DNA of 60,533 bases from an uncultured bacterium (GTDB lineage: Bacteria; Bacillota_I; Bacilli_A; RF39; UBA660): positions 1 through 60,533 of the forward strand of contig CAMPCD010000004.1 in the NCBI GenBank assembly GCA_946643435.1, read 5' to 3'. The notes under the pieces are model-generated. The model searched no databases and was not told the origin of the DNA. It worked only from the letters and a program-made list of their open reading frames with translations. The translations under genes and the position numbers were made by a program. Of the stretch, positions 27,426 through 59,491 are shown piece after piece; within the stretch, counting starts at the first letter, position 1, and each line of letters opens with the position of its first letter.

Positions 27426-28608
27426 TTATTAATACAAATAGATAAGAATAATCATATTTATTTGTATTAGGTACATCTTCTATTATTAAATTATATGTAT
27501 TATCATCTATTTCTTCTATATCATTCAATAATGTTTCATCCATAGTTATTTCTTCATTAATAGAATTATTTATCTTTTCATCAAATAATAAGATATTGTA
27601 ATAACTATTGTCATCATCAAATGCAATTGTATAAATTGTATCATCTAACAAATATCCATCCGGTGAAACTAATTCCTGTAAATAATATGTTCCTATAGGT
27701 AAATCATTTATATAAGTGCTTTCTTTATCACTAATAGGCACTTCTTTTATAAGTTCATGATTACTATCATATATTCCATATATAGAGCCATCTAGTTTTT
27801 CATTTGTTTCTTTATCTAATTTAGACAAATATAAGTCACAGCCAAATATATTTATTTCATCATCACCTAATAATCTATCTAAGTTACCTCTTATTAATAA
27901 ATCTTGTCCATCATCGCTTTTATAAATAGCATATTTATCTAAATGATCATATCCTAAATAATACTTTAATGAATATCTACCTATTTTATCAAAATTACTT
28001 ACTTTAATACCTGTATCTGTTCTTTCAATATTAAACATATCATCATATTCTATTTTCATGCCATTAAAGTATAAAGATGGCTCAATAATAAGTTTATTAT
28101 TACTACCTAATAATACTTTTGCAGATAGTTGTTCACTCACTCCATACTTATAATTATCAATGGTATTTTCTATCTCATATATATATTTATCAATATTTAA
28201 GATACTTCCTTTACCAAATGGTTCTGTCGAAATAATTATATCTTTATCATTTAATAATTCTTTCCATATTAATACTTGAGTAGCCATATAATATTCTTCT
28301 TCATAATGATTATCAAATTGATAACCAAAGAACATTAAGTCTTCTATTCTTTCTTTATTAATTAAACTAGTTGTATCATCTGATAGATAATAATTAGTCC
28401 CCATTCTTACACCTGGTTCAATACAATAAGCTATACTTTTATTAGCATATACATACATATAGAATGTATCAGAGAAATTTCTTCCTTTATTATTTTTAAA
28501 AGTAAAATAATAATATAGTTTATTCTTTGTTATTTCACTTGCTTTAACATTGTAGAAAGAAAATGATAGTATTGTAATAATTATTAAAATAAGAATACCT
28601 TTCTTCAT
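27394..28608 (-). CDS. Surface adhesin with thioester (TED/TQxA-type) domain, CnaB-like domain and VPNTN cell-wall sorting signal
   Basis: Signal peptide. AYCIEPG (Cys62) plus ATQVLIW (Gln111) match the Cys-Gln thioester-domain signature. CnaB-like segment LSKLDKETNEKLDGSIYGIY...YYLQELVSPDGY. The C-terminus has VPNTN (27460-27474), a hydrophobic stretch and KK. Confidence 0.7.
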   Translation of the reverse strand: MKKGILILIIITILSFSFYNVKASEITKNKLYYYFTFKNNKGRNFSDTFYMYVYANKSIAYCIEPGVRMGTNYYLSDDTTSLINKERIEDLMFFGYQFDNHYEEEYYMATQVLIWKELLNDKDIIISTEPFGKGSILNIDKYIYEIENTIDNYKYGVSEQLSAKVLLGSNNKLIIEPSLYFNGMKIEYDDMFNIERTDTGIKVSNFDKIGRYSLKYYLGYDHLDKYAIYKSDDGQDLLIRGNLDRLLGDDEINIFGCDLYLSKLDKETNEKLDGSIYGIYDSNHELIKEVPISDKESTYINDLPIGTYYLQELVSPDGYLLDDTIYTIAFDDDNSYYNILLFDEKINNSINEEITMDETLLNDIEEIDDNTYNLIIEDVPNTNKYDYSYLFVLIIGVFIVKKIY

Positions 28609-30732: not shown

Positions 30733-33012
30733 TTAATTACAGTTAGATGCAATTCTATATGGATTAGCATCACTACCATCACCAGAACATACTCTAGCAC
30801 TATTCTTATTCATTAAATGCATAGTTCTGAAAGGATAAGATGCACCAGTATAAATTGCTTTCTTAGTTATTGTTCCATTAGCACCATAACCAGTAACTAC
30901 ATAATAGTAATAGTTGTATCTAGTAGTTGACCATGAAGGACCATGAACTGAAATAGTAAATCCAGAAGATCCAGATTGAGAAATCCAATATGATGGAGTT
31001 AAAGCATTTAAGAATAACTTAGCATCTGTTTCAGTAGGTATTGCTGAATATCCAGTATAATTACCTTGGTTATCTGAAGCAAATGTTGCTCTACCAAACA
31101 TATTATCTGATGAACATGTATCTATATCAGAATCTACATTAGCTATACCAGTCTTAAATGAATTCCATACAGTAGATGAATATGTATAACTTGTAGAATA
31201 ATATCCATCACATGTTTGAGTTCCCCAAGAACCTGTTCTAGTAACAACTGTACCAGATAAGTTATATGATTTTGATTTATCAGTTAATACTGTAGCACCA
31301 CTTGTTCTACCTAATACAGTAAATGTTTTATCTCTATAAGCTACTGTTTTTACTTTATTACAATAATAACAATTCATTGAACCTAGGGCTTTAGAATTTC
31401 CACCAGCTTTACAACTTGTATTACAATCTGTACCTACATTTGTACCAATTATTGAATATAAGTTATTAGTTATATTAACGTTAACAGCTACCCAAGGGCC
31501 TGCAAAACCTTCTGCATTAACAGGTCTAATATATGCTGTTTGCTTATCATTAGCTACATTTGCACAATTTGAAACAGGAGTTTCACTTATTGCACTAAAT
31601 GTTTTACTTGTTACACCAGATGGGTTTCTAGGAAGATCAGTATATGAAGCTTGATCATAACTTGTTTGATATCTAACTACACCTATTGGCGAATAAGTAT
31701 CACCAATAGTTATTGTTCTTTTTAAATCAATATCACCTGCACCAGTAGAACTACCACTTATTTTACAATTAGGTATTACTAAGTCTTGAGCAATTAATAC
31801 ATTTGCTTCACTATTTAATTGATAGTTTGTAATGTAATGTCCTCTAGCAGTCATCTTAATGTTATACATGTTGCTACCATCTCTTACGTAATAAATCTTA
31901 CTGAAATCATTACTATTAGTAGCAAGATTCTCTGTAACAGGATTATTAGCTATATAATTAGTTGATCCATATTTAGATCTTGTTATAGTATAAGTTGAAT
32001 TAGATGAATCTGCACCAACTAATGTAGGTCTAAATGCCAATACTTTATAATTAGTACAATCTGATGTAGTTGGTTCATATTGATGATACATAGTAGTATG
32101 AGTATCCATAGAACCTGTTCCATATGTATTTGTATATTTATTACCATTATTAAATGCAGTTGATGAAATTTCTGGTCTTGCTTGATTTAATGGATTAGCA
32201 GCAACAGTTACTTCTCTAACCTCTAAATCAGGAGCAAATGTATCTAATACTACTATATTTCTTGTAAATTCTTTTGGAGTACCAGATGAAGATATAAATG
32301 AATAAGTAATTCTATATGTACCTGCTTCATCCATATATTTCATTTTACCTTTTGATGTAGTTGTTCCACCTTCACCAATGTAAGAAATATTTCTAATTAA
32401 ATTAGAACCACCATGATTCTTAGACCAATCATTAACATCGTTCCATTCTTTCCAACCTGGTGCATATTTACAAGTAAAATGATATTTATTTATTAATTCA
32501 TCACGATTTGTAACTATATTACCATTTTCATCACTTATACTTAACTTGTAAGTACCAATACCATTCATACAGTCATATGGTTCACCAAATACTACATAGT
32601 CATCTAATGCTACTAAGTATTGTTCTTTATCACTGCTTTCAGCAGGATATTCAAATTTTAAAGCACCTGATGATGTATCTAGTATTGCTTTAATTAATTC
32701 AGTCTTACTGATTATTTCTCCAGTATATGGATTAGTAAGTTTTTCATCTAAATAACCACCAGCAATAACATCACCTGTAGTTATATACATATATGCTTTA
32801 TCAACATACAAGTTTGAAAATACATCACTATTTTGAGAAGCATAAGCATTTGCTGCACTCAAAACACTCTCTCTAAATTGTTGATATTCTCTATCCTTAG
32901 AATTTTTAGAGATATTTGTCATATTAATAATTATTATTGTTGCTACTATACCTAAAAGGATAATAGTAACTAACAATTCTGTTAAAGTAAAACCTTTTGA
33001 ATTTCTTTTCAT
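30733..33012 (-). CDS. Large modular type IV pilin/pseudopilin-like protein (759 aa)
   Basis: Class III signal MKRNSKG|FTLTELLVTIILLGIV with Glu at +5. A pilin-like globular head of about 125 aa is followed by about 630 aa rich in Ser/Thr/Asn/Tyr/Gly and Cys. Confidence 0.75.
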   Translation of the reverse strand: MKRNSKGFTLTELLVTIILLGIVATIIIINMTNISKNSKDREYQQFRESVLSAANAYASQNSDVFSNLYVDKAYMYITTGDVIAGGYLDEKLTNPYTGEIISKTELIKAILDTSSGALKFEYPAESSDKEQYLVALDDYVVFGEPYDCMNGIGTYKLSISDENGNIVTNRDELINKYHFTCKYAPGWKEWNDVNDWSKNHGGSNLIRNISYIGEGGTTTSKGKMKYMDEAGTYRITYSFISSSGTPKEFTRNIVVLDTFAPDLEVREVTVAANPLNQARPEISSTAFNNGNKYTNTYGTGSMDTHTTMYHQYEPTTSDCTNYKVLAFRPTLVGADSSNSTYTITRSKYGSTNYIANNPVTENLATNSNDFSKIYYVRDGSNMYNIKMTARGHYITNYQLNSEANVLIAQDLVIPNCKISGSSTGAGDIDLKRTITIGDTYSPIGVVRYQTSYDQASYTDLPRNPSGVTSKTFSAISETPVSNCANVANDKQTAYIRPVNAEGFAGPWVAVNVNITNNLYSIIGTNVGTDCNTSCKAGGNSKALGSMNCYYCNKVKTVAYRDKTFTVLGRTSGATVLTDKSKSYNLSGTVVTRTGSWGTQTCDGYYSTSYTYSSTVWNSFKTGIANVDSDIDTCSSDNMFGRATFASDNQGNYTGYSAIPTETDAKLFLNALTPSYWISQSGSSGFTISVHGPSWSTTRYNYYYYVVTGYGANGTITKKAIYTGASYPFRTMHLMNKNSARVCSGDGSDANPYRIASNCN

Positions 33013-33080: not shown

Positions 33081-33821
33081 TTAAGTGCCATATGTAGGAT
33101 TAATACAAGCAGTATTATGTCCCTTATATCCTAAACAAATAGAATAGTCATTTGTATTTGTTTCATATAATACTATTACCCTTTTTTCACTATTAGGTAA
33201 TATATCTTCTCCATCATATATATCTACAGTATTAATTCTAAAGATATTTTCATCTATATTAATATAATCATTACCAGTATCAGTATAATAAAATACACTA
33301 TTTAATACAGGGCTAACTTTTATATTATCTTTAATAGATACACTATATTCTATTCCTTCATATCTAAATCCTGCATCTAATGGATAATCTATACCTTTTT
33401 CTGATAATAAAGTTGAGACTTCATTACTATCTATTAATCTAATACCTTTTACATAAGCATCATAATAGTTATTATTATATTTAATAGATCCTAAAGTAAG
33501 ATTACCTAATCCTGTAGGCATGATAGGATTAGTTTTAGTATAATCAGTATTTATTATCTCTTTAGTAGTTGTTACATTTTCATAAACCACAAGATCTGGT
33601 TTCTTATATTTATTTATTAAATTAAACAATAACAGTCCTATAATTGGTATACCTATAATAATTACACATATATAGAATATATTTAATCTTTTTTGTATAA
33701 TATCTATATTCTTTTTATTTTCAAGTTCTGTAGGAATAGTACTAAAATCATAGTTACAATAAGGACAAATATCAAAATTAATGCTTTCCTGATTGCACTT
33801 TGGACATATCACTTGTACCAC
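33081..33821 (-). CDS. Zinc-ribbon / single-pass membrane protein with extracytoplasmic domain
   Basis: CPKC..CPYC zinc ribbon, one TM segment, beta-rich C-terminal domain. Start ambiguous (GTG at 33821 or 33812). Confidence 0.55.
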   Translation of the reverse strand: MVQVICPKCNQESINFDICPYCNYDFSTIPTELENKKNIDIIQKRLNIFYICVIIIGIPIIGLLLFNLINKYKKPDLVVYENVTTTKEIINTDYTKTNPIMPTGLGNLTLGSIKYNNNYYDAYVKGIRLIDSNEVSTLLSEKGIDYPLDAGFRYEGIEYSVSIKDNIKVSPVLNSVFYYTDTGNDYINIDENIFRINTVDIYDGEDILPNSEKRVIVLYETNTNDYSICLGYKGHNTACINPTYGT

Positions 33822-33914
33822 CTACTTTATTCTTATATAAGAATATCACTTATTATAGTAATTGTAAATAATCCTAAAGGCTAAAAAATACTTAATTATT
33901 TTTTTAAATATTAC

Positions 33915-33942
33915 TTGACTAAACGTATAAATATGATATAAT
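33915..33942 (+). promoter_or_regulatory. Sigma-A type promoter of the tRNA Lys-Ile-Glu cluster
   Basis: TTGACT, 16 nt, TATAAT with an extended -10 TG. Confidence 0.6.
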
Positions 33943-33965
33943 GGACTAGTACTCAAAGAAAAGAC

Positions 33966-34041
33966 GTCTTCTTAGCTCAGCTGGTAGAGCAACTGACTCT
34001 TAATCAGTGGGTCTAGGGTTCGAATCCCTAAGGGGACACCA
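33966..34041 (+). tRNA. tRNA-Lys (anticodon CTT)
   Basis: Cloverleaf by hand. Anticodon loop CTCTTAA, T-loop TTCGAAT, encoded CCA. Confidence 0.85.
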
Positions 34042-34048
34042 TTTAAAT

Positions 34049-34125
<77 letters not shown>

Positions 34126-34134
34126 TTGATTTAT

Positions 34135-34210
34135 GGCCCGTTGGTGAAGCGGTTAACACATATGCCTTTCACGCATACATTCATGGGTTCAAATCCCGTA
34201 CGGGTCACCA
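34135..34210 (+). tRNA. tRNA-Glu (anticodon TTC)
   Basis: GGCCCGTTGGTGAAGCGGTTAACAC..., anticodon loop CTTTCAC, encoded CCA. Confidence 0.9.
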
Positions 34211-34219
34211 TTTGATAAT

Positions 34220-34250
34220 AACTAGGATTTATCCTAGTTTTATTTTTTTA
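34220..34250 (+). terminator. Terminator after the tRNA cluster
   Basis: AACTAGGAT-TT-ATCCTAGTT hairpin followed by a T-run. Confidence 0.7.
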
Positions 34251-34268
34251 TAAAATAAAAGGATATAT

Positions 34269-34937
34269 TTAACATATATCCTTTTTATAATAGTCTAATT
34301 TATTTGAATCTAACACTTCTATTGAATAAAAACTAGAAGAATCATAATCATAGTAATACATTATATTCTTATATGAATCAATATTATTTTTATATTCACA
34401 TACATCATATACTTTATTATCCTTATATAGTTTACCATTTACTACATTAGTTAAATGAATATTAATTCCAGCATCTGTTACATCCACTGATTCTATATCA
34501 ATAATAAACATATTATCTACTTCTTTAATAATATCGAATTCATTTTTAGTAGTATTATATACAATTATATTATCTGTACCTAGAATATTACTCTTAGCAA
34601 ATAAAACCATATTATCTTTATAAAATGCTATGTAAGATATAATTGATACATGATCAATTATATATGTATCGTTTATATATAATGTTTCATCATTAAAATT
34701 TATATGATTGTCATTCAAGTTTATATTTATATGATTAAGTGTATCAGCATTCAATGAATATAGTTTAAACCTATCTGTATCACCTATTAATTCATACTGT
34801 TCTTTAACTTCTATTTCTTTCTTATCTTCTTCCTCATTATGAAGCAATACAACTATCAAATATATACTTAAAACTAATAAAAATATAATTATTAAAATAA
34901 TTATATTTCTATCTTCTTTATCTAAAGTTTTATTCAA
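34269..34937 (-). CDS. Hypothetical single-pass membrane protein
   Basis: N-terminal TM segment and an Asn/Asp/Ile-rich extracytoplasmic domain. Overlaps the upstream gene by 8 nt. Confidence 0.55.
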   Translation of the reverse strand: MNKTLDKEDRNIIILIIIFLLVLSIYLIVVLLHNEEEDKKEIEVKEQYELIGDTDRFKLYSLNADTLNHININLNDNHINFNDETLYINDTYIIDHVSIISYIAFYKDNMVLFAKSNILGTDNIIVYNTTKNEFDIIKEVDNMFIIDIESVDVTDAGINIHLTNVVNGKLYKDNKVYDVCEYKNNIDSYKNIMYYYDYDSSSFYSIEVLDSNKLDYYKKDIC

Positions 34938-35892
34938 CTGTCATACTATAGAAGTTTTTATCTTTAGTAAATCTAAATGTTACAACAGTTAATCTATTAG
35001 CATATTTAACAATATCATTATTGTATTCACCTATTTGTCTATTATTAATAATATTAAATACTTTATTGTTATCAATCTTTGCTACATATGCTTTAACTAT
35101 AATATAATTATCATCTTCACTTGCATCAAATGCATGATATGCTACATCTTCTGTATTAGGCACAGACACGATAGCAATATATTCATTCTTATTTGGTGAA
35201 TAAATAAAATTAATATTATATATATTGAATGAAGTTGGTTCATAATCATCTTTACCAAATAATTCAATATAAGCACTTCTTAATGTAGATGATTTAATAG
35301 TTAATATAGAACCATCTGTTTCAATATCAGATTCTTTTAATTTAGAATAAGCCATTTGTAATTTAGTAATCATACTTAAGTCATCTACTTTAGGATTATT
35401 CTTATATAAATTATAATCATATACTTTAAATGTATTAACTAAATTACCATATAAAGCTAAGTAATCAACTTTTTCTTCTTCCTTCTTAGGAGCAGTTGTA
35501 GTTACTTCTTTAGTTTCTTCTGGTTTAGTATATGTATAATTAATAATATCTAAATTATCAGTCTTATATAATCTATAAGCTACATATATAATGATTGATA
35601 ATAATACAATAATATATACAGATAATCTAAATATCTTAAATGATTTACCTCTACTGATTTTCTTTTCTTCTTTAACTATTTGATTTTTAACTTCTTCTTT
35701 TACATCAGTAGTTACTTCATCTATTATTTGATCTTTAAACTCTTTATTAAACTTAGTTCTAACTTCAGCAGTTACTTTATTAGAGAACTCTTTAACTAAT
35801 TGATCTTTATAATTGTTTTCAAAGTCATCAGTTATTTGCTTTCTATATCTATCTAATGTTTTTCTATCTAATATGTTTCTTTTATCAGCCAT
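34930..35892 (-). CDS. Hypothetical single-pass membrane protein with repetitive helical cytoplasmic N-terminus
   Basis: Start at 35892 behind GGTAGGTG. Repetitive (K/E)(E/D)F..(Q/K)I-type helical segment, one TM segment, extracytoplasmic domain. Confidence 0.55.
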   Translation of the reverse strand: MADKRNILDRKTLDRYRKQITDDFENNYKDQLVKEFSNKVTAEVRTKFNKEFKDQIIDEVTTDVKEEVKNQIVKEEKKISRGKSFKIFRLSVYIIVLLSIIIYVAYRLYKTDNLDIINYTYTKPEETKEVTTTAPKKEEEKVDYLALYGNLVNTFKVYDYNLYKNNPKVDDLSMITKLQMAYSKLKESDIETDGSILTIKSSTLRSAYIELFGKDDYEPTSFNIYNINFIYSPNKNEYIAIVSVPNTEDVAYHAFDASEDDNYIIVKAYVAKIDNNKVFNIINNRQIGEYNNDIVKYANRLTVVTFRFTKDKNFYSMTVE

Positions 35893-35991
35893 ATTAAACA
35901 CCTACCTTATAACTATATTATAAGTTATTTACTGTTAATTAACAATTAATTTGCACTTTATATATGACAAGTAAATATATAACTGTAAATA

Positions 35992-37395
35992 TTATCTATA
36001 AGCTTTAAAATGTACTGGAGATGTATTAGCATCAATTGCTCTAAAAGTATATCCATTATTTAAAGCATATTTAATCATTTCTTCTAATCCAGCTGCAGTA
36101 TAAGATTTAATATCATGTAATAATACTATATTACTTCTTTTTGAACTAATGCCTGATTTAAATTTACTTACAACACATGCTCTCTTATCACTTGCACTTA
36201 CACAGCTACCAGCATCTTCAACACATACATTCCAATCGAAATATTCATATCCACGACTAGTAACAGCTGCTGCTACTTCAGACATAGCTACTTTAGATAC
36301 TCTATTAGATGTTCCACCTGGGAATCTAACATATTTTGATTCAGTTCCTGTTATTCTTTTTACTCTATCAGATACTTGTTGTAAATCATTTAAATAAGCA
36401 TCTAGGGAAGCGTACATAACTTTGTAGTTATGTGTTGCTGTATGAAGAGCTACTGTATGTCCTTCATCAAATTCTCTTTTAATAATGGCATCACTACCAC
36501 CTAGAGTAACAAAGAATGTAGCTTTAATATTGTACTTCTTTAATACATCTAATATTTGTGAAGTATATCCACCTGGACCATCATCAAATGTTAAATATAT
36601 TACTCCATCAGTTGCTTTCTTTTCATATACATTAACAGTTCTTACTGCCTTTAATTCTTTATTATCTTTAGCAGTATATGTAATATCATATTTTCCTACT
36701 TTAGTAGTATCAACTGATCCTTTAATTTCTACTTCACCTTCAAGTTTATTACCACATCCATCACTTATATAAGCACCTGGTTCTTCATATGTAGTATTTA
36801 CCACTACATTCATATAACTTTTACCATTTAAAGTGATTTTATCAGCAGGTTTTTCACTTTGAATTTTTCTTAACTCTTTTGTTGTAGTATTACCATTTGA
36901 ATCAGTTACAGATAATATGAATTTATCATCTTTTTCTTCTTTTACTACTTTAGTAGTAATATCTCCATCATAGTCATCTACAGCTTTATAATCTAAATTA
37001 TCTACAGCTTTAGAATCACAATAACCAATTGTTACTTCATTTACATTAGTTGTAATTTGAGGAGCTGTATAATCTACTACTTCTACTTTTCTTACAAGAT
37101 TATAATCTACTCCTTCATACTTAAAATTATACTTAATTTCATAAATACCTACATTAGATAAATCCACATTAGATATAACATCATATGAATCCATATCATC
37201 AAGACTTAATTCTTTATCTCCACGTTTTATAAAAACACCTTCATCATTATATTCAGATCCAAATCCAATCTTAACATAATCATTACCTCTTAAAGATACT
37301 TTTACTTTATTAGTTTGTTTAGTTACATAAAAAATACAAAAACCATTTATAAAAATAAACAGAATAATTACTAAAAGCATAATTGACTTTTTCAT
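35992..37395 (-). CDS. Polysaccharide (peptidoglycan) deacetylase with three N-terminal Ig-like DUF5011-type modules
   Basis: Start at 37395 behind TAGGTGA. TM anchor. NodB-homology motifs IYLTFDDGPG, HTVALHTATH and LLHD. Ig-like repeats ending ...GKYDITYTAKDNKELKAVRTVNV. Confidence 0.8.
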   Translation of the reverse strand: MKKSIMLLVIILFIFINGFCIFYVTKQTNKVKVSLRGNDYVKIGFGSEYNDEGVFIKRGDKELSLDDMDSYDVISNVDLSNVGIYEIKYNFKYEGVDYNLVRKVEVVDYTAPQITTNVNEVTIGYCDSKAVDNLDYKAVDDYDGDITTKVVKEEKDDKFILSVTDSNGNTTTKELRKIQSEKPADKITLNGKSYMNVVVNTTYEEPGAYISDGCGNKLEGEVEIKGSVDTTKVGKYDITYTAKDNKELKAVRTVNVYEKKATDGVIYLTFDDGPGGYTSQILDVLKKYNIKATFFVTLGGSDAIIKREFDEGHTVALHTATHNYKVMYASLDAYLNDLQQVSDRVKRITGTESKYVRFPGGTSNRVSKVAMSEVAAAVTSRGYEYFDWNVCVEDAGSCVSASDKRACVVSKFKSGISSKRSNIVLLHDIKSYTAAGLEEMIKYALNNGYTFRAIDANTSPVHFKAYR

Positions 37396-37447
37396 ATAAT
37401 CACCTAACTTCATTATACAACAAAAAATAGATAATATTAATAATTAT

Positions 37448-44219: not shown

Positions 44220-45186
44220 AATATCCTCCAAATATAGAATCTCTTATTTCTATTGATTCAGTTGGTATATTAGTAGTTATTTTAGTTTTATTCTTAAATC
44301 TAATAATACCTATACCTAAGATTATTAAATCTTGATTATCATCTATATTTAATTCATTAGATAATTTGATTTCTTTATAATACTTCTTAATTAAATTATT
44401 ATCATTTAAACTAGTATAAAATGTTATAGGTGTACCATTTTCAATCTTAATATGATATTTATTATTTAATAATTGAATAACTTCATTATCTTTTAAGTTA
44501 TAAGATAACATTTTTATATCTTTATTAGTTACATCATTATTTAAGCTATTAGGAATAATAAACCCTGGACTATCTATTAATGTTAATTGATTATTTAATT
44601 TAACTCTCATAAAATCTAATGTTGTATTAGCATGAGAATTAACATTAATCTTATTAATCTTACTTCCTAAGATAGTTGCCATATCATTAATGAATGTTGA
44701 TTTACCAGAATTAGATATGCCTAGTAGATAGGCTTCATGTATATTATTATCCATCAAATATTTATAGATAGATTTAACACCATGATTAGCTGTTCCACCT
44801 TTTACTTTAATATCAGAGTAAATACTGTATTTATCTTGTACAAAGTTTCTTACCATATTATATGTAATATTATCAGGTAATAATTCACCCTTATTAATTA
44901 CTAATACTTTATTATTCTTAATAGATTTAAATAAATCCATTACATAAGTATTAATATTCAAATAATCACATAAGAAGATAACAAACTTATTATCTTTATT
45001 TACTTTTCTAATTATTTCTTTAGCATCTTTAGGAGTATCCATGACTTTTTGTTCTCCATAATGCATCATTCTAAAGCAACGCATACAATAAGATGCATCA
45101 TCTATTTTATTCTTAGGAATATATCCTTTAGCATTTTGATCATCTGATTGTAATTGAGCTCCACATCCAAAACAAATCTTAGTCAT
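44212..45186 (-). CDS. yqeH: Ribosome biogenesis GTPase YqeH
   Basis: N-terminal CxxC..CxRC zinc finger. Circularly permuted GTPase with NKGE, then GISNSGKST, then DSPG. Confidence 0.8.
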   Translation of the reverse strand: MTKICFGCGAQLQSDDQNAKGYIPKNKIDDASYCMRCFRMMHYGEQKVMDTPKDAKEIIRKVNKDNKFVIFLCDYLNINTYVMDLFKSIKNNKVLVINKGELLPDNITYNMVRNFVQDKYSIYSDIKVKGGTANHGVKSIYKYLMDNNIHEAYLLGISNSGKSTFINDMATILGSKINKINVNSHANTTLDFMRVKLNNQLTLIDSPGFIIPNSLNNDVTNKDIKMLSYNLKDNEVIQLLNNKYHIKIENGTPITFYTSLNDNNLIKKYYKEIKLSNELNIDDNQDLIILGIGIIRFKNKTKITTNIPTESIEIRDSIFGGYYE

Positions 45187-45703
45187 AGTATCTACCTCTT
45201 TTAAATAAGTTCTTTTCAGTTAAATTATTAACTACTATATTTTCAAGCTTTCTATTTAACTTTGTAACTGCATATTCATCAATAGATACAGGATTAACTA
45301 ATATAGAAGTATAATTCATTCTATTAGCTCCTAATATATCAAATAAGAAATTAGAACCAATACAAGCTACTTCATAGTATTTATAATTAAATATCTTAGC
45401 TATCTTTTTATATTTATATTTTAATGGTTTGAAAGATAAATATGATGAATCTACACATAGTCCTTCTTTAAAAGGAGTAACTACCTTTTTAGAACTATTA
45501 GACATGATTATTATTTCTAAATCTAAATCTTTAATATATTCCATTAAATCTTTAAGTTTTTTATCAGGCATATTAACACCTTCAGGTACTAAAGTATTAC
45601 TTAAACCAAATATAACACACTTAATACCAGTCTTTTTTAAAGCTTTATAATCTATGTCATATATACTCTTATAATATTTATCAGGTATAAATTTTTCAAA
45701 CAT
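45179..45703 (-). CDS. yqeG: YqeG-family HAD-IIIA phosphatase
   Basis: Size, HAD-like pattern and position immediately upstream of yqeH. ATG at 45703 behind GGTGGT. Confidence 0.65.
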   Translation of the reverse strand: MFEKFIPDKYYKSIYDIDYKALKKTGIKCVIFGLSNTLVPEGVNMPDKKLKDLMEYIKDLDLEIIIMSNSSKKVVTPFKEGLCVDSSYLSFKPLKYKYKKIAKIFNYKYYEVACIGSNFLFDILGANRMNYTSILVNPVSIDEYAVTKLNRKLENIVVNNLTEKNLFKRGRYYD

Positions 45704-45751
45704 ATTTACCACCAAAGTTATTATACAATAAAAAAAAAGTTCTATAAAGAA

Positions 45752-46399
45752 CTAATTAACCTTAATCTTTATAGCACTTGTTGTATCTGTAACACTTACT
45801 GTATTACCATTGTTATTATTACTAACATTAACATTGTTTTTATTGTTTCGTTCATTAACATTTACTTTGTTTTCTTTATCAAGTTCATCTGCACTAACTG
45901 ATCTAGTGTGATTTGTTGGATTTGTACCAACATCTATAGTAGTAGTTATTGATGTTATACCAACTATTTTTTCATTATCTAATTGATTATAATCAACACT
46001 CTTAGAATCATCAGTATCTGGTGCTGAAGCATCTATTTCATGTGCTTCTAATTCACAATGACCAGATTCATCCCATACATTCATTATTTGCATCATTTGA
46101 TCTACTATAACTGGAACAGCAAATAATACTACAGCAGCACCAACTCTTCTTACAAACTTATTAAAGAACTTTTTACCTTCAGCTTCTACTCCACCTTTAG
46201 TTAAAGCAACAATACCTTCATATATTGTATAACCAATTACTAGAATAGGAGCAACTATTTTAATTATTCTTAAAATACCTGCTAAGTCTTTAGTAACATT
46301 AACTCCTAATGGACAAGAACTAGTTGTCGCTAATACTGTAGAAGGAATTAATACAATACCGAATAATACTATATATAAATATACTTTATAATTTTTCAT
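45752..46399 (-). CDS. Secreted two-TM hairpin protein with Asn-rich tail (topology reminiscent of TrbC/VirB2-type pilins)
   Basis: Signal peptide, two hydrophobic helices separated by a short charged loop (KGGVEAEGKKFFNKFVRR), then a polar tail of about 100 aa. Topology argument only. Confidence 0.3.
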   Translation of the reverse strand: MKNYKVYLYIVLFGIVLIPSTVLATTSSCPLGVNVTKDLAGILRIIKIVAPILVIGYTIYEGIVALTKGGVEAEGKKFFNKFVRRVGAAVVLFAVPVIVDQMMQIMNVWDESGHCELEAHEIDASAPDTDDSKSVDYNQLDNEKIVGITSITTTIDVGTNPTNHTRSVSADELDKENKVNVNERNNKNNVNVSNNNNGNTVSVTDTTSAIKIKVN

Positions 46400-46454
46400 T
46401 AAAATCACCTAATTCACTTATATTATAACATAATTAAAGTATATATCTATGTAA

Positions 46455-47075
46455 TTATTTTTTCTTTACAATTTTATTATATACACTTAAGTATATGGGT
46501 GTAATTAATAATAATATATTAAAACCTAAATATACATAATATATGTCTTTAACCATACCATTTATTATTGTTCCATAATTCATAGTATATAGAATAATAA
46601 ATGATATTATTATACCTATTATAGATGTAATCAATCCAATAGTTTTAATGTTATGTTTCTTCTTAGTTTTATTTAATATAGTACCTGTTATAATTAACAT
46701 AACAATAGTTGCTACATCAAATATATCTTTTATCATTCTCACATTTTTATAAGGACCTATTACTTTAATATTTCTATTATATATCTCATCATATTTAGAA
46801 GGTATTACATCTTCATTAATTATTATTTTATTTGTAAAAGATCTATCATTAAAATAACCATTAATATAACTATTAACATCATTCTTTAACAAAGAATCAT
46901 CTATTGTATATTTTACATCTACCTCTTTATTTATATTAGCTTTAATCATTTGATAATAATCATGTTTAGTAAATTCATGAATAATAAATCTAGTATTAAA
47001 TAAAGTAAAACTTAATACTACCATGATTATACAAATAGATAATAATATACTTTCTAAAATATTAATTAATTTCAT
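46455..47075 (-). CDS. Hypothetical polytopic membrane protein
   Basis: One N-terminal TM segment, an extracytoplasmic loop of about 90 aa, three C-terminal TM segments. ATG at 47075 behind GGAGGA. Confidence 0.5.
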   Translation of the reverse strand: MKLINILESILLSICIIMVVLSFTLFNTRFIIHEFTKHDYYQMIKANINKEVDVKYTIDDSLLKNDVNSYINGYFNDRSFTNKIIINEDVIPSKYDEIYNRNIKVIGPYKNVRMIKDIFDVATIVMLIITGTILNKTKKKHNIKTIGLITSIIGIIISFIILYTMNYGTIINGMVKDIYYVYLGFNILLLITPIYLSVYNKIVKKK

Positions 47076-47104
47076 AGTATCCTCCATAAGTAAAAAGAGT
47101 ATTT

Positions 47105-47989
47105 CTACTCTTTATTAGTTAAATATGTAATAGTACCATCATTTAAGATAGCACGTGCAGCAAATCCAATTACATAATGGTATTTATTATATACAGCTAT
47201 TATTTCAGCTGATGTAACAGTTTTACCTATATCTTTATCATCTAAATAATCATTGTAATTACTATTCATAAAATCATAGTAATATTGCCATCTATAGTTT
47301 TCTTCATCATCAGGGTTAAATGCACCTGAGAAAGTTATTACATATTTTTTGTTCCAATCACCATAGTCTGGCTCAGTATAACTTGGTTCCATATCTTTAG
47401 TTTTAGTTTGTACTAAAGAAGCACCTTCCTTAACAATTAACTTAGCAGTTGTTTTAGCTATATTATTACTTGTATCTTTAGCTTTAATATTAACTGTATA
47501 TGTTCCTTCTTTTGATGTATCTACACTACCATCAAATTCATATGTACAAGGATAAGAATAATCTTCACACTTAGCTATGAAATCATCTGGTTTTATTTCT
47601 TCATTTAATCCAACAGTTAATTCATTAGTTGATACTGTAGGTGCAGTAGTATCTTTAACTACTACCTTACCTTCTTTAATGATATCATTTAATACTACTC
47701 TATAAGTATATTCACCAACTACATTCAATACTTTATCATTAGTAAAACTTACTGAATCCAAATTTAATTTATAATCTTTCGGATTTAAAGGTTTATTAGT
47801 TAAATAATCTAATACATCAGTAGATATTGTATCTCCTACTTCATATACTATAGTCTTTTTAACACCAAAGTTTATACTTTTAAATAATATAATAATACCA
47901 CCTATTATTACTGCAAATATTACTACAAATAATACTGCTTTAACTTTTGTTGGAAGTTTACTTTCTTCATATATTATTTCGTCTTCCAT
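47105..47989 (-). CDS. Single-pass membrane protein with Ig-like DUF5011-type modules
   Basis: TM anchor. DTTAPTVSTNELTV...GSVDTSKEGTYTVNIKAKDTSNNIAKTTAKLIV. The start abuts the upstream stop (TAGATG). Confidence 0.6.
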   Translation of the reverse strand: MEDEIIYEESKLPTKVKAVLFVVIFAVIIGGIIILFKSINFGVKKTIVYEVGDTISTDVLDYLTNKPLNPKDYKLNLDSVSFTNDKVLNVVGEYTYRVVLNDIIKEGKVVVKDTTAPTVSTNELTVGLNEEIKPDDFIAKCEDYSYPCTYEFDGSVDTSKEGTYTVNIKAKDTSNNIAKTTAKLIVKEGASLVQTKTKDMEPSYTEPDYGDWNKKYVITFSGAFNPDDEENYRWQYYYDFMNSNYNDYLDDKDIGKTVTSAEIIAVYNKYHYVIGFAARAILNDGTITYLTNKE

Positions 47990-48346
47990 CTATATCCACC
48001 TAGAAAAATAAATATTCCTTGTATAGCCAACCTCATAATTATCAAATACTTTAATTATCCAATTAACTATAGCAGTTAATTTATCTTCATCCTTTCTTAT
48101 TCTTATTTGTTTCATTTCACTTCTAAGTTCTTTTCTGAAGAAATAGTCATCTATATATTTATTTAATACTAGATCTAATTCCTCCAATTTATTTACTTGA
48201 ACTCTATTATTTATATCAACCTTAAAAACATAATCATGATAAACTCTAATTAACCTTTCAGATAATTCATCATCTTCTAAATATTCAAAATTAATAATCT
48301 TATAGAAATTTGGACAATGCTTTAATATTGCTTTATTCTTATTCAT
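47990..48346 (-). CDS. Hypothetical cytoplasmic protein (about 118 aa)
   Basis: ORF 47990..48364. The ATG at 48346 has the better SD spacing (GAAGGT). No motif recognised. Confidence 0.5.
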   Translation of the reverse strand: MNKNKAILKHCPNFYKIINFEYLEDDELSERLIRVYHDYVFKVDINNRVQVNKLEELDLVLNKYIDDYFFRKELRSEMKQIRIRKDEDKLTAIVNWIIKVFDNYEVGYTRNIYFSRWI

Positions 48347-48403
48347 GATTATCTTACCTTCCATATCAAAATTATACTATTTTTAGACAATAAAATAAAG
48401 ACT

Positions 48404-49333
48404 TTAAATATGCTTTAAAGTCTTTAAGTCTTTTTTAGAATTATCTAAATTAATATTATATGCATTTAGCATCGATTCAAGTGTTAATTCATAAGAGAAT
48501 ATTGCTTGAATATATTGTAACATTTCATCTTTATCTATTTCAGCAGCTTTAGTAAATGTATCTAATAAATTAAATGCTTGTAATATAGATGTAACATATT
48601 GATAATCATCTAATAATTTATCTACTTTAGTAGAATCTAAATTAGTCTTATGTCCATCTTTAACTGGTCTATAGTATAGATTAATACTCATTAAACGTTC
48701 ACCTAATTCATTAAGCATATGATTTCTTACTAAACGATATGATTCTCTACCTCTACCATTAGCAGTTAATAATGCAAAGAACATAGGTAATATATCTTTA
48801 TTTAATGGATCACTTACAACACCTTTTTCATCAACTTGTGTATGAGTTATTTGATAATTATATTGTGCTTCAGCTAATTCTTTATTTCTACTATCTACAT
48901 TAATTAATGTATATGCAGTTCCTATTTCACCTGTTTTAGCATCTTTATAATCAACTGATTCTAAAGTAGATGTAATAACTGGTCTACCATTTACCTTTAA
49001 ATCATCATTATGTGTAGCAAGAATTATTCTTGAAGGATGATTCTTAACAACATCATCATAGCTACTAAAAGAATCACTTAACATATCTGATTTAACTATA
49101 TTAACATCTCTTAGATCTAATCCATAATCAAAGAATAATTTAATAGCACTTTTAGGATTATTACTTTTACCAAATTCCTTTAATGCAGTTAAAAAACTTT
49201 TATTCTTTATTAATGAATCTGCTGAATATATTTCTCTATCTTGCATTATTGCATTGTATAAATACCAATAATAATCAGTTATAAGAAATAATGTTGATTC
49301 ATTCATTACTTTATCTCTATCAATTTTATTCAT
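48404..49333 (-). CDS. Hypothetical cytoplasmic protein (309 aa)
   Basis: Extended -10 promoter (TGTATAAT) and AAGGGG SD directly after the rpmF terminator. No motif recognised. Confidence 0.6.
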   Translation of the reverse strand: MNKIDRDKVMNESTLFLITDYYWYLYNAIMQDREIYSADSLIKNKSFLTALKEFGKSNNPKSAIKLFFDYGLDLRDVNIVKSDMLSDSFSSYDDVVKNHPSRIILATHNDDLKVNGRPVITSTLESVDYKDAKTGEIGTAYTLINVDSRNKELAEAQYNYQITHTQVDEKGVVSDPLNKDILPMFFALLTANGRGRESYRLVRNHMLNELGERLMSINLYYRPVKDGHKTNLDSTKVDKLLDDYQYVTSILQAFNLLDTFTKAAEIDKDEMLQYIQAIFSYELTLESMLNAYNINLDNSKKDLKTLKHI

Positions 49334-55178: not shown

Positions 55179-55565
55179 CTATTTTGTATTAATTATATAT
55201 GAGAATAACTTTCTTAAATCAGTTTTACCTCTAGCATCTAAGTGAATAAATTTTAATTCCATTTGATATCCACTATCAAATGAGAATAATATAGATGCAC
55301 TAGATCTCTTATATAATATTGCACTACTTGATATAGATGAATAAGGTATAATATGTATCTTCTTACTTCCATCTAATGGATTAACATCAAATAATACCAT
55401 TCTTTCATTTGTAAATACACCTTTATCACGTGATGTTTGATAAGCTTGTATTACTTTTTCATCTTTCTTAAAATAATCTGTTACATAAGTTGGTAAATCT
55501 TCTTCATTGATTCTTTTGTTAAAATTAAAATATTTAGTTAGTTCTTTATATTTAATATATGCCAT
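55179..55565 (-). CDS. Bacterial PH (bPH/DUF1696-like) domain protein
   Basis: 128 aa. The pattern DKGVFTNERMVLFDV...IHIIPYSSISS resembles bacterial PH-domain proteins. Confidence 0.5.
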   Translation of the reverse strand: MAYIKYKELTKYFNFNKRINEEDLPTYVTDYFKKDEKVIQAYQTSRDKGVFTNERMVLFDVNPLDGSKKIHIIPYSSISSSAILYKRSSASILFSFDSGYQMELKFIHLDARGKTDLRKLFSYIINTK

Positions 55566-55599
55566 ATAACCTCACCTATTTTTAATTTACTATTTATAA

Positions 55600-55629
55600 T
55601 AGAAAAAATCAAGGATAACCTTGATTTTT
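55600..55629 (-). terminator. Terminator of the large surface protein gene
   Basis: AAAAATCAAGG-ATAA-CCTTGATTTTT hairpin. Confidence 0.7.
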
Positions 55630-55635
55630 ATATTA

Positions 55636-58600
55636 TTAGATACGATTTACTGAAACTAATTTTAAGTTTCCAGTTTTTTCATTGTATTGTACTAAGTATA
55701 ATTTATCGCCATAAATATATTCGATATAAATATATTGATTTAGCCATTCACCATTAGTCGCTCTAATAATAGCATGGTCAGTCTTAGATATTTCATATCT
55801 TAGTTTTCCATCTACAACACTGGAACTCTTTAATGTTATTGTATGAGTACTTATATTACCTTTTTTGTAGACTTTGTTAACAGTTGCCCCTGATGGTAAT
55901 TTATTGAATTCAATATAATATTTTCCATCTGGAACTGTAACTTTCATAGCTTTAATAGCTTTTACTCTTTCTGCTTCGGCTTCTGCTTCGATAGCTTCAT
56001 CTTCTTCTTCTTTAGAAGAATATTTGCTTACAGCATAATCGAATTTATCTGTAATATTGTTATTAGAATTTAAAACTACTGTTGCAGTTCTCTTAGTTGT
56101 AGCACTTGAAGTTTTAAAATTATCTAATCTATACTTATCAGATGACAATTCTTTAGTAGTATCATCTGTATAAGTAGCTGTTACAGTAATATCTTCTTTT
56201 TGATTTTTCCAATATGTAGGAACATGATTAACTACTTTAATAGATTCGATCTTATTAATAACTGTAGTATATTCGAATGTCTTAGATTGACCTTTATATG
56301 TAACTGTAGCTGTATGTTTACCTTCTGTCTTATCTAATGCAGTTACTTTGTAATCATCAGTTTTTTCATTCTTCTTACCATTGTTATCATCGTAAGTAAC
56401 AGTTATATCAAATTTAGTTGCATAATCATAGTATTTATCTTTGTTGACTTTAACATGTATGTCAGTTACTTTGATATCAACTAATTTGATGTCTTTTAAT
56501 TCATTAATTGATTCTTTAATTGCATTGATGTCAGTACCTTTGTAGTTGTCTTTAGCTTTAGAAATCTTGTTGTTTAAGTCTTCAACTGATTTATCAGTTT
56601 TGTTAGTAGTATCTAATTTCTTAGCTTTTTCAATTAATTCCTTTAATTCAGCTTTTGCTTTATCTAATTCTTCAGCATCTCTATCATATATTACTCTAGC
56701 ATCACAATGGAATCTATCACCTTGTAATTTTAATACGTAATATTGTAATTTTTTGTACTTATTGTTGTTAAATACATCTGGTTCACCTTTAAGTACTTCA
56801 CGTATTTTCTCATCATTATCTGAGTAAACGATAATATGTTTATTTCTATAATCATTAACTGCATCAACTATTTCTTTAGTTATAGTTAATTCGAAATATT
56901 TATCTTTTTCTACTTCAGGTTTATTATAAGGATGATTGAAATCATCGATATTTGTAGAATAATCATATCCTAAATCTTCTTTTAGAATTGAAATCTTAGT
57001 AGTTGCAGAAACAACATCATATTTTGCTTGTACTTCTAAGTTGCCTTTAACATGTTTTAATGCAGAATCTTTAACATCCCAATTTAAGAATTTTAGTTCG
57101 ATTGAACCATTCCATTCAGTAACAGTTCCACTTGTATCAGGTATATTAGCAGCAGTATTATATGTAACACTTTGTGTTGATAATACTTTACCCTTAATAC
57201 CATAGAATGTTACAGTGAACTTTTTGTTCTTAATAGCGTCATCGATAGCCTTTTTAGTATCTTTAACTGCTTTTTCTAAATCTTCTAAGTTGTTTATATT
57301 ATCTAAGTTGTTTTCAAAATCATTCTTGATTGTTGTAATTTCTTCGATGTATTGTTCATCATCAGTTCTATATTTTTTGATTTCATCAATAGCTGCATCT
57401 TTCTTATCGGCTAATTCAGCATCTTTATCATAATGAATTCTTCCGTCAACATGAACTCCATCACCAGTAACTTTTAATACATAGAATTCAATAGTCTTAT
57501 ACTTATTACCTTTGTATAAAGTAGGTAGCTCAGTTGAAACAATAGAACGGATAGTTGCATCATCAGTAGCTACTATAACTTCGTGACCTTTACTATATGT
57601 ATTAACAGCATTGATAATATCGTCAGTTAACTTAACTTCAATATTTTTTACGATTCTTTCGTAGTCATCAGTTGTTAATCTTTCTTTGTTGCTAGATTCT
57701 TCTTTAACTACATATACGCTTCCTGTTACATTAGTAACTTCATAGTTAGCATATACATCTAAATTAGTCTTTACTTCAGTGAAATCCTTATCCCAACCAA
57801 CAAACTTATTGATAACACGTCCATAGAAAGTTGTAACCTCTTTCTTTATTTCAGGAGTTTTAGCTGATTTTGTGTAATGAACTGTTTGTGTATCAAGTAA
57901 TTCATAATTAGAATTATGTGTGTTGATATGGTAGAAATTAACTGTGAAAGTTGTATTCTTGATTAAATCATCAATTTTATTTTTTGTTTCTTCTACAATG
58001 TTTTCAATTTCTTTAACATCATTAGAAGCTTCAACCTCTTTTAATCCTTCATCTTTAGTAGTATTAATATCTTTGATGTATTCTTGATCTTCTTGTTTAT
58101 ATTCATTGATATCTTTAAAAGCTTTTTCTTTAGCTTCTGCTACTTCGTTTGCTTTCATTTCATCTAATGCTTTCTTAGCATCAGATACTAACTTATCAAT
58201 TGCTTTCTTAGTTGTTGCATCATCAATCTTGTTGTTATATTCATTTAATAAGTCAGTGTAATCAGTGACTAGATTTAAACTTTCAGCATATTCTTTGATG
58301 TCTTTCTTAGCTGCTTCTTTATATGCAGTTAAATCTTCATTGATTACTTCATCAATTTTATTCTTACCTTCATCTAAGTTTTTATTGATGTCATCTAATG
58401 TTGTTGAATCATTAATCTTAGTTGTATAGTCATCAATAACCTTATTGTAGGCAGAATCATCAGTGAATTGATACTCATCTTTATACTTTTTCAATTCATC
58501 AATAGCATTAGCTTTGTCAATTGTAAGATCTAAAGTAGTAGTATTATCGACTCTAGCTATTACTCTTCGTGTATTATTTCTTGTTGCATTTCTTTGTGTA

Positions 58601-58785
58601 GTTTCATTGTTGTCTGGTTCTGGTAACACTTGTTCATTCTCAGTTGTGTCATTTGTTGTATTACCAGTAGCGGCTTGATTTGCATTATTTTCTTCACCAT
58701 TATCATTTAAAGGATTCGCGAAAGCAAACATAAACAATCCTAGAATAATGAATGTAATGATAGCAAATATACGCTTCTTATTCAT
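55636..58785 (-). CDS. Large repeat-rich secreted/surface protein (1049 aa), adhesin-like
   Basis: ATG at 58785 behind GGGAGG. Signal/anchor peptide. About five 55-60-aa helical modules, two Listeria-Bacteroides-repeat-like beta modules (FTVNFY.../FTVTFY...GW/NWD), two Ig-like modules, and a C-terminal beta domain. No LPxTG. Confidence 0.75.
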   Translation of the reverse strand: MNKKRIFAIITFIILGLFMFAFANPLNDNGEENNANQAATGNTTNDTTENEQVLPEPDNNETTQRNATRNNTRRVIARVDNTTTLDLTIDKANAIDELKKYKDEYQFTDDSAYNKVIDDYTTKINDSTTLDDINKNLDEGKNKIDEVINEDLTAYKEAAKKDIKEYAESLNLVTDYTDLLNEYNNKIDDATTKKAIDKLVSDAKKALDEMKANEVAEAKEKAFKDINEYKQEDQEYIKDINTTKDEGLKEVEASNDVKEIENIVEETKNKIDDLIKNTTFTVNFYHINTHNSNYELLDTQTVHYTKSAKTPEIKKEVTTFYGRVINKFVGWDKDFTEVKTNLDVYANYEVTNVTGSVYVVKEESSNKERLTTDDYERIVKNIEVKLTDDIINAVNTYSKGHEVIVATDDATIRSIVSTELPTLYKGNKYKTIEFYVLKVTGDGVHVDGRIHYDKDAELADKKDAAIDEIKKYRTDDEQYIEEITTIKNDFENNLDNINNLEDLEKAVKDTKKAIDDAIKNKKFTVTFYGIKGKVLSTQSVTYNTAANIPDTSGTVTEWNGSIELKFLNWDVKDSALKHVKGNLEVQAKYDVVSATTKISILKEDLGYDYSTNIDDFNHPYNKPEVEKDKYFELTITKEIVDAVNDYRNKHIIVYSDNDEKIREVLKGEPDVFNNNKYKKLQYYVLKLQGDRFHCDARVIYDRDAEELDKAKAELKELIEKAKKLDTTNKTDKSVEDLNNKISKAKDNYKGTDINAIKESINELKDIKLVDIKVTDIHVKVNKDKYYDYATKFDITVTYDDNNGKKNEKTDDYKVTALDKTEGKHTATVTYKGQSKTFEYTTVINKIESIKVVNHVPTYWKNQKEDITVTATYTDDTTKELSSDKYRLDNFKTSSATTKRTATVVLNSNNNITDKFDYAVSKYSSKEEEDEAIEAEAEAERVKAIKAMKVTVPDGKYYIEFNKLPSGATVNKVYKKGNISTHTITLKSSSVVDGKLRYEISKTDHAIIRATNGEWLNQYIYIEYIYGDKLYLVQYNEKTGNLKLVSVNRI
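56671..58140 (-). repeat. Tandem duplication of a roughly 240-aa composite module inside the surface protein (coordinates approximate)
   Basis: aa 218-458 and aa 460-707 align end to end. Each contains a helical module, an FTV(N/T)FY beta module, and a third domain ending YVLK(V/L)(T/Q)GD..H.D.R(I/V).YD(K/R)DAE. Confidence 0.7.
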
Positions 58786-58805
58786 ACACACCCTCCCTTT
58801 TTAAC

Positions 58806-58836
58806 AAAAAAAAGCACTTAAAAATGTATTAAGTGC
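58806..58836 (-). terminator. Intrinsic terminator acting as the riboswitch expression platform
   Basis: Minus strand GCACTTAA-TACATTT-TTAAGTGC followed by U8. It ends about 15 nt before the SD of the surface protein gene. Confidence 0.7.
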
Positions 58837-58915
58837 AGCTGACTACCATGATTTGCATTTTAGGTTCTGAAGCTTTGCGCCACTACTTTTCAATAGTTTT
58901 GCCATAGATTGTACA
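58833..58915 (-). promoter_or_regulatory. Candidate c-di-GMP-I (GEMM-I) riboswitch aptamer
   Basis: Minus strand: GGCAAAACUAUUGAAAAGUAGUGGCGCAAAGCUUCAGAACCUAAAAUGCAAAUCAUGGUAGUCAGCUGCAC. It contains GGCAAA, a 6-bp helix capped by GAAA, GCGCAAAGC, a CCUAAA receptor-like element and GGUAG..CAGC. This parallels the Vibrio Vc2 aptamer as I recall it. Confidence 0.6.
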
Positions 58916-58941
58916 TATTATGCCTCTTTGTTATGCCACCT

Positions 58942-58970
58942 ATTATAAAGTAAGATTTATAATTTTGCAA
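58942..58970 (-). promoter_or_regulatory. Sigma-A promoter driving the riboswitch leader
   Basis: Minus strand TTGCAA (58970-58965), 17 nt, TATAAT (58947-58942). Confidence 0.65.
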
Positions 58971-58981
58971 GTCATTTATAA

Positions 58982-59491
58982 TTATTTAATTGGCCATAAT
59001 CTAAACAGTTTTATTCCAATTATGTTTTTTCGTTCGATTAGACCGTAGTTTCTACTGTCTAAAGAATTTGTACGATTATCTCCTAAAACTAAATATTTAT
59101 TTTCAGGAATAACATCTACTCCTAAATCAGATAATTTAAAGTCATTTGTAATCACATCATCTTTTAAATATGACTCTTTATATTCTTGATCATTTATATA
59201 TAATTTGTTATCTTTGAATTCAATTTTATCGCCAGGTAATCCGATAACTCTTTTAATCATATATTTTTCAGATTGAGATATAACTATTACTTCTTCTCTT
59301 CTAGGTTCTCTAAATTTAGTAGATAGTTTATTAATCACTAAAATATCACCTTCATTAAAATTTGGAGACATTGAAGGTCCAATTACTTGTTGTAATCCAA
59401 TTACAAATATAAATAGTAATAATACTACAACAAATACTAATATATACTTAAAAGTATCTCTAAAAAATTCATTAATTTCTCTAAAATCCAT
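58982..59491 (-). CDS. lepB: Signal peptidase I
   Basis: TM anchor. GPSMSP (catalytic Ser), KRVIGLPGD (Lys), GDNRTNSLDSR. Confidence 0.9.
   Translation of the reverse strand: MDFREINEFFRDTFKYILVFVVVLLLFIFVIGLQQVIGPSMSPNFNEGDILVINKLSTKFREPRREEVIVISQSEKYMIKRVIGLPGDKIEFKDNKLYINDQEYKESYLKDDVITNDFKLSDLGVDVIPENKYLVLGDNRTNSLDSRNYGLIERKNIIGIKLFRLWPIK

Follow-up and report, generated by a model that had tools for sequence, protein, structure and literature searches.

The leader of a gene for a large secreted protein in an uncultured rumen bacterium contains an element that covariance-model matching, together with the comparison of orthologous leaders, confirms as a genuine class-I c-di-GMP riboswitch, i.e. 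as a member of a known RNA class. We consider it probable that this riboswitch controls transcription termination, the likeliest direction being ON. The element lies on the minus strand, in the 196-nt gap between the signal peptidase gene lepB and the gene of a 1049-aa protein, within a stretch of 60,533 nt that was analyzed as a whole (hereafter the window) and that is part of a 69-kb scaffold from a sheep-rumen metagenome. An earlier reading of the same DNA, made from the sequence without database searches (hereafter the sequence-only reading), had proposed a c-di-GMP-I aptamer and a terminator in this gap, and had named the Rfam families of both c-di-GMP classes, as well as covariation in homologous leaders, as the checks to be made.

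Identification of the aptamer

When the whole window was scanned (cmscan) with the 4227 families of Rfam at their gathering thresholds, the only matches were five tRNAs and the c-di-GMP-I (GEMM-I) family RF01051, which matched positions 58913-58831 of the minus strand. The match extends over model positions 1-87 of 87; its score is 60.0 bits, compared to a gathering score of 35, and its E-value for the 60.5 kb of the window is 2.9e-9. Two lower-scoring matches to families of the same clan overlapped it, RF01051 being the best-scoring of the clan, and in a permissive scan of the region 58700-59050 at E <= 1 RF01051 was the sole family listed. The family of the class II riboswitches, RF01786 (c-di-GMP-II), was not matched at E <= 1 in this region, nor did it reach the gathering score anywhere in the window. 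The proposal of a GEMM-I aptamer was thus borne out, by a full-length match well above the gathering score and by the presence of the same aptamer in homologous leaders.

On inspection of the sequence, each of the elements that had been listed for the gap was found at its minus-strand position and in the order given: GGCAAA (58903-58898), the six-pair first hairpin ACUAUU-GAAA-AGUAGU (58897-58882) closed by a GNRA loop (58891-58888), GGCGCAAAGC (58881-58872), the CCUAAA of the receptor hairpin (58864-58859), and GGUAGUCAGCUGCAC in the 3' part of the aptamer (58847-58833). The alignment to RF01051 comprises the GC/GC junction pairs, the six-pair GAAA hairpin, the CGCAAAGC junction, and the receptor hairpin with its CCUAAA and GGUAG segments, in which all pairs of the model form except for one deleted position in P3. 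The one detail of the sequence-only reading that did not stand is the tip of P3, which had been drawn as the hairpin AUG-CAAAU-CAU; the covariance model instead pairs AU-GCAA-AU and leaves CAU bulged. The aptamer is also the stretch that had been perceived as richer in G and C than its surroundings, and indeed its G+C content is 39%, compared to about 27% for the window.

The ligand of the prototypical aptamer Vc2 is contacted by G20, A47 and C92, and in the cGAMP-sensing relatives G20 is replaced by A (PMC4744006, PMC6140456). According to our own reading of the RF01051 consensus, by which the Vc2 numbers were mapped to the columns of the model, these residues align with G 58903, A 58876 and C 58835, all of which are canonical and invariant in the 23 leaders that we aligned. 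Likewise, C 58879 and G 58843 occupy the unpaired consensus positions that correspond to the interhelical C44-G83 pair of Vc2; they are invariant too, and may form the same tertiary pair. Judging from this set of residues, the predicted aptamer would be expected to bind c-di-GMP. GEMM-I also includes members that sense cGAMP, as well as other variants, and the overlap of two further matches from the clan with that of RF01051 might be taken to point in that direction; however, the specificity position is G and not A in 23/23 leaders, the equivalents of A47 and C92 are canonical (PMC6140456), and RF01051 outscores the other families of the clan, which makes it very improbable that the aptamer senses another cyclic dinucleotide (3'3'-cGAMP, as GEMM-Ib does) or represents a variant class with an altered binding site.

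The helix P1a, which closes the canonical aptamer, is not part of the RF01051 model, and we searched for it separately, by comparing the 5' flank with the nucleotides 3' of the C92 equivalent. The AU-rich flanks yielded weak, non-conserved AU pairings alone, and the folds contained no conserved pairing at this place; the lack of an evident P1a counts against the riboswitch model proposed below.

Orthologous leaders and covariation

Twelve clear homologues of the 1049-aa protein (P0002-P0013), with 32-80% identity, were found among metagenome-derived proteins, one of them bearing the database name 'hypothetical protein [Bacilli bacterium]', whereas a look-up for entries identical to the 1049-aa protein gave no match. 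Nine contigs encoding homologues were examined, and a scan of a genome collection with the protein alignment gave three loci, of which one was additional, in a MAG titled 'uncultured Tenericutes bacterium'. In all ten further orthologous loci a full-length RF01051 match with 60-70 bits is located directly upstream of the homologue. Metagenome contigs were also scanned with a DNA pattern built on the invariant core of the aptamer, which provided 20 more contigs, and the leader alignment comprised 23 distinct sequences from rumen 'Bacilli'/'Tenericutes' MAGs and metagenomes.

Across these 23 leaders, 98.8% of the cells of the Rfam helices and of the terminator form standard pairs, and compensatory changes occur at eight pairs, namely at 6/6 pairs of the GNRA hairpin and at two pairs of the terminator (one of which is U-A in 13 leaders, C-G in six and U-G in four). 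None of the 500 column shuffles reached the observed values, and in a control, in which the partners were slid by 1-3 columns, the pairing fell to 20-51%. The check on homologous leaders thus came out in favor of both the GNRA hairpin and the terminator. P3, the receptor hairpin, is paired in 100% of the cells and shows no variation; with P3 and the junction invariant, they carry no covariation evidence either way, and this invariance was partly imposed by the DNA search pattern, although the leaders found by protein homology are invariant there as well.

The leader is flanked by candidate expression signals. A sigma-70-type promoter-like site (58942-58970, minus strand) consists of TTGCAA (58970-58965), a 17-nt spacer and TATAAT (58947-58942), and matches the consensus at 10/12 positions. 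A consensus scan found five such sites versus 5.1 expected, so a single site is not above chance in DNA as AT-rich as this; nevertheless, the TTGC of the -35 box and the -10 box are conserved across the orthologous leaders. At the other end of the gap are the Shine-Dalgarno sequence GGGAGGG (58797-58791) and the ATG start codon (58785-58783, both within 58783-58797 of the minus strand); a Shine-Dalgarno sequence and an ATG are conserved in all aligned leaders. A leader peptide that would start from an SD-like AAAGAGG and an AUG was considered and dropped, as its open reading frame is not conserved in the other leaders.

Apart from general caution, of the sort prompted by a promoter-like site without individual significance in AT-rich DNA, nothing could be said for a chance or decayed resemblance to GEMM-I that has no regulatory role. 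The E-value of 2.9e-9 for the window, the compensatory changes, and the fact that the riboswitch keeps its position among orthologues with only 32-53% protein identity and with different outer flanks effectively refute this explanation, to which we assign a negligible probability.

The terminator and its overlap with the ligand pocket

An intrinsic terminator is located at 58806-58836 of the minus strand, with an 8-bp stem formed by GCACUUAA and UUAAGUGC (58836-58814) and followed by U8 (58813-58806), as had been noticed in the sequence-only reading. The consensus scan found one terminator-like site versus 0.2 expected, i.e. above chance. The terminator starts with G 58836 and C 58835, and the latter is the equivalent of C92, a residue of the ligand pocket. 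In 23/23 leaders the 5' arm of the terminator begins with G-C directly after P3, and therefore the second nucleotide of the arm is always the C92 equivalent; the claimed overlap between the 3' end of the aptamer and the 5' arm of the terminator is real and includes the equivalent of a ligand contact in every leader. The terminator stems are AU-rich and have their sole G-C pairs at the base, adjoining the U-run. Removal of the two basal G-C pairs changes the mean dG of the hairpin from -8.6 to -2.7 kcal/mol for the 23 leaders, and from -8.1 to -2.1 kcal/mol for the hairpin of the window.

In Vc2, C92 pairs with a guanine of the ligand upon binding, and a helix of the nucleotides located just 3' of C92 is thereby completed (PMC11705072). 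In the leaders studied here the nucleotides just 3' of the C92 equivalent are those of the terminator arm. One would therefore expect the ligand-bound aptamer and the terminator to exclude each other, as in an ON switch, and the conservation of the overlap, including the C92 equivalent, makes an ON switch the most economical reading. The ON-switch interpretation, which had been put forward together with the overlap, is in addition supported by the experimental precedent of Bc2 (PMC4933901), and ON is the probable direction.

We propose the following mechanism. Transcription would start about 7 nt past TATAAT, or it would read in from lepB. At low c-di-GMP, GCACUUAA, situated directly after helix P3, would pair with UUAAGUGC and form, with the U8, the intrinsic terminator, so that the transcript would end at about 58806, ahead of the Shine-Dalgarno sequence. 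With c-di-GMP bound, C 58835 would base-pair with one of its guanines, while the junction would hold the neighboring nucleotides. The terminator would then be left without its only two basal G-C pairs, on the side of the U-tract, the remaining AU stem would be too weak, and the polymerase would read through into the large gene. Its product would be exported by the Sec pathway, cleaved by the signal peptidase I encoded next to it, and would function as an adhesin-like or matrix-like surface protein.

A conserved purine-rich element at the 5' end of the leader

The simple two-state model does not account for one conserved feature. Shortly after the -10 box, at 58920-58932 of the minus strand, the leader contains the purine-rich element AACAAAGAGGCAU, which is of the form C/U-R6-GCA and is conserved in 23/23 leaders. 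It is complementary to the 3' base of the terminator and the U-run (UGC-U6-9), and according to RNAalifold and RNAfold it pairs with the U-tract in most leaders, in a long-range helix that encloses the aptamer together with the terminator. In folds with the C92 equivalent blocked, the pairing of the 5' element extends onto the 3' arm of the terminator. The pairs between the element and the U-tract are A-U or G-U against invariant partners and amount to no true covariation; the purine tract is always six nucleotides long, whereas the U-run varies from 6 to 9. We considered also an extended antiterminator (a 'decoy arm'), in which the part of the 5' leader that follows the purine tract would pair with the 3' arm of the terminator, and rejected it: cognate combinations gave -3.94 kcal/mol and non-cognate ones -4.12 kcal/mol (permutation p ~0.77), a result that covers pairing beyond the invariant R6-GCA:UGC-U(n) complementarity. 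Possible roles of the 5' element are those of a distal antiterminator, of a clamp that joins the two ends and stabilizes the terminated RNA, or of a protein-binding site; it could also result from a constraint on the initially transcribed region.

These observations bear on the possibility that the aptamer is real and yet does not work as a simple ON switch. The hairpin could terminate or attenuate transcription constitutively, that of lepB included, while c-di-GMP would control how stable the RNA is or how it is processed (for instance, the terminated RNA could be closed by a pairing of the 5' purine-rich element with its 3' U-tail); alternatively, the leader could be an OFF switch that employs an unrecognized structure. 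The direction of switching is indeed not readable from the class alone, since OFF-type GEMM-I switches with terminators exist, as exemplified by Bc1 (PMC11218506). No terminator was found between lepB and the riboswitch, therefore the riboswitch terminator may also end the lepB transcripts; the C/U-R6-GCA element is universal among the leaders, and its helix with the UGC and the U-run coexists with the terminator in most minimum-free-energy folds. A role in the control of stability has moreover been proposed for Vc2 (bioRxiv 10.1101/617340). On the other hand, the aptamer and the terminator leave no space between them for a separate antiterminator, and the overlap at C92 is the classic geometry of an ON switch, whereas the long-range helix lacks true covariation, the comparison of cognate and non-cognate pairings was negative, and the purine tract keeps a fixed length against a U-run of variable length. 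We regard these departures from a simple ON switch, taken jointly, as unlikely, and retain the c-di-GMP-dependent ON switch at the terminator as the preferred reading.

The regulated protein

The regulated gene (55636-58785, minus strand) was characterized by translation, AlphaFold modeling and Foldseek searches, and encodes a secreted modular protein of 1049 aa. Its N-terminus is a Sec signal peptide that ends with AFA|NP and is followed by a disordered linker, and its sequence contains no lipobox cysteine and no LPXTG motif. Pfam and NCBIfam searches assigned it to no family and revealed no Cna_B or collagen-binding domains, and a whole-chain Foldseek search gave no family assignment either; its distant sequence matches carry Flg_new (PF09479). 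The AlphaFold model, based on an alignment of 11 sequences, has a mean pLDDT of 77.6 and comprises a disordered region (residues 1-85), helical bundles (88-277, 454-519 and 702-764), and repeated beta domains that are Flg_new-like and Ig-like. Foldseek comparison against the PDB returned surface proteins alone, with weak scores for the whole chain: the Ig-like domains of LigA, the helical domains of EbhA and BibA, SHIRT domains, Bacteroides cell-surface proteins, invasin, FdeC, and S-layer proteins. Given the signal peptide, the domains of the model and the matches to surface proteins, 'secreted, adhesin-like, modular' is a fair description, and the helical bundles and Ig-like domains of the model resemble those of bacterial surface adhesins. 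In the homologues P0002-P0013 the signal peptide and the first helical region are highly conserved, while the remainder diverges and the total length ranges from about 750 to 1314 aa; such divergence in length and sequence between close relatives is as expected for a diversifying surface protein.

The gene cassette and its surroundings

Upstream of the riboswitch lies lepB (58982-59491, minus strand; TIGR02227, 163 bits), which codes for signal peptidase I, and downstream of the large gene there is a gene for a protein with a bacterial PH domain, bPH_1 (55179-55565, minus strand; PF08000, 48 bits). A terminator-like hairpin, annotated on the minus strand at 55604-55629 (a perfect palindrome of 11 bp, flanked by A5/T5 and readable on both strands), directly follows the large gene, which implies that the regulated unit is probably mainly monocistronic. 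The order lepB, riboswitch, large protein with a signal peptide, bPH_1 is found wherever the flanks are present (55179-59491 of the window, minus strand, and loci L001-L012, L014-L015, L017-L024, L026 and L028), and the genes outside this block differ completely between the loci, which suggests that the conserved block is a functional cassette. The lepB of the cassette is possibly a dedicated signal peptidase for the large protein. The exception to this order is L016, in which the same subtype of riboswitch (5560-5757, plus strand), with a longer terminator hairpin, follows jag- and mnmE-like genes and not lepB; the contig ends 60 nt beyond the riboswitch. L016 may represent a second member of the regulon.

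It is tempting to go further and to consider lepB, the riboswitch, the hypervariable secreted protein and the bPH protein as a dedicated module for c-di-GMP-gated export and adhesion, in which the riboswitch terminator would double as the terminator of lepB, and the 5' element would replace P1a by pairing with the 3' base and the U-tract of the terminator, and would serve as distal antiterminator or as a clamp between the 5' and 3' ends that stabilizes the terminated aptamer RNA. We hold this extended scenario to be doubtful as a whole; if it were true, the leader would exhibit a design of the expression platform that has not been described for GEMM-I.

Regular-expression and Pfam searches for GGDEF, the domain of diguanylate cyclases, and for EAL, HD-GYP and PilZ found none of them in about 70 kb of this genome (the window and 10 kb beyond) and about 160 kb of related loci, a sample of roughly 230 kb that corresponds to a few percent of a genome and is uninformative for whole genomes.

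The window contains other genes for surface proteins. At 26901-28608 (minus strand) a sortase gene overlaps the gene of a 404-aa protein with thioester (TED) and SpaA prealbumin-like domains, a classic pair of a sortase and its thioester adhesin, which has no riboswitch upstream. A 759-aa protein encoded at 30733-33012 (minus strand) has an N-terminal prepilin-type methylation motif (N_methyl) and no other recognized domain, and may be a large pseudopilin or a protein associated with type IV pili. Two proteins with Bact_surface_Ig-like domains are encoded at 3299-4264 and 35992-37413 (both minus strand), one of them fused to CHAP and the other to a polysaccharide deacetylase. Many open reading frames of 180-517 aa (in 210-3277, 22589-24433, 33081-35901 and 45179-49333) have no Pfam family at E <= 1e-5, which is consistent with a poorly characterized lineage. 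The minus strand carries nearly all protein genes, and the GC skew is uniformly negative across the window; the five tRNA genes are on the plus strand, three of them in a cluster (33966-34207) and the others at 1867-1940 and 22437-22509.

Implications

The riboswitch described here belongs to a known class, and its target, a putative surface or adhesion protein, is of the customary kind; what is particular is that the family of the target is undescribed and that it comes from an uncultured rumen lineage. A literature search for such a riboswitch context in rumen bacteria gave nothing relevant. The knowledge of the riboswitch class itself is left unchanged by our results, and only the conservation of the lepB/bPH cassette and the as yet unexplained 5' element go beyond routine annotation. 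Nonetheless, the riboswitch provides a functional handle on a family of large secreted proteins from uncultured rumen bacteria that would otherwise be impossible to annotate. The predicted control by c-di-GMP suggests a role in attachment or in biofilms, e.g. on feed particles, and it implies c-di-GMP signaling in an AT-rich lineage of 'Tenericutes'/'Bacilli'.

Comparison with known systems

The ON switches of Clostridioides difficile are mostly of class II (RF01786), and from these the present leader differs in that RF01786 has no match in it. The general logic is nonetheless shared with the adhesin and pilus genes of this organism, where, as in other Firmicutes, c-di-GMP riboswitches with terminators raise the production of surface adhesins at high c-di-GMP (reviewed in PMC6366702).

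With respect to the aptamer, the closest reference is provided by Vc2 and Vc1 from Vibrio cholerae (PMC4744006, PMC11705072), with which the leader shares the GNRA hairpin, the receptor hairpin, contacts of the G20/A47/C92 type and the interhelical C-G pair. An adhesin gene, gbpA, is likewise under the control of Vc1. Unlike in Vc2 and Vc1, the nucleotides before the G20 equivalent are UAU or AUU, compared to an A-rich consensus, and P1a is not evident. Furthermore, Vc2 has been described as an OFF switch that acts on translation and RNA stability, whereas here there is a clear intrinsic terminator.

With respect to the expression platform, the best parallel is Bc2, located upstream of the gene for the collagen adhesion protein (cap/cbpA) in the Bacillus thuringiensis/cereus group (PMC4933901, PMC7423583), which is likewise a GEMM-I aptamer in a leader from Bacilli, with a terminator just before a large open reading frame for a surface protein. 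Experiments on Bc2 of Bacillus thuringiensis, whose terminator adjoins the adhesin gene cap, established that it is a c-di-GMP ON switch (PMC4933901). The target proteins are unrelated; the 1049-aa protein has neither Cna_B/collagen-binding domains nor LPXTG, and it resembles assorted surface proteins at the level of the fold alone. The system described here, as known from its sequence, is further set apart from Bc2 by its rumen lineage, by a terminator that directly overlaps the ligand pocket, by the 5' purine-rich element, and by the lepB/bPH cassette. Still, the regulatory logic that we propose is that of Bc2, in which transcription terminates by default at low c-di-GMP and high c-di-GMP leads to production of the surface adhesin.
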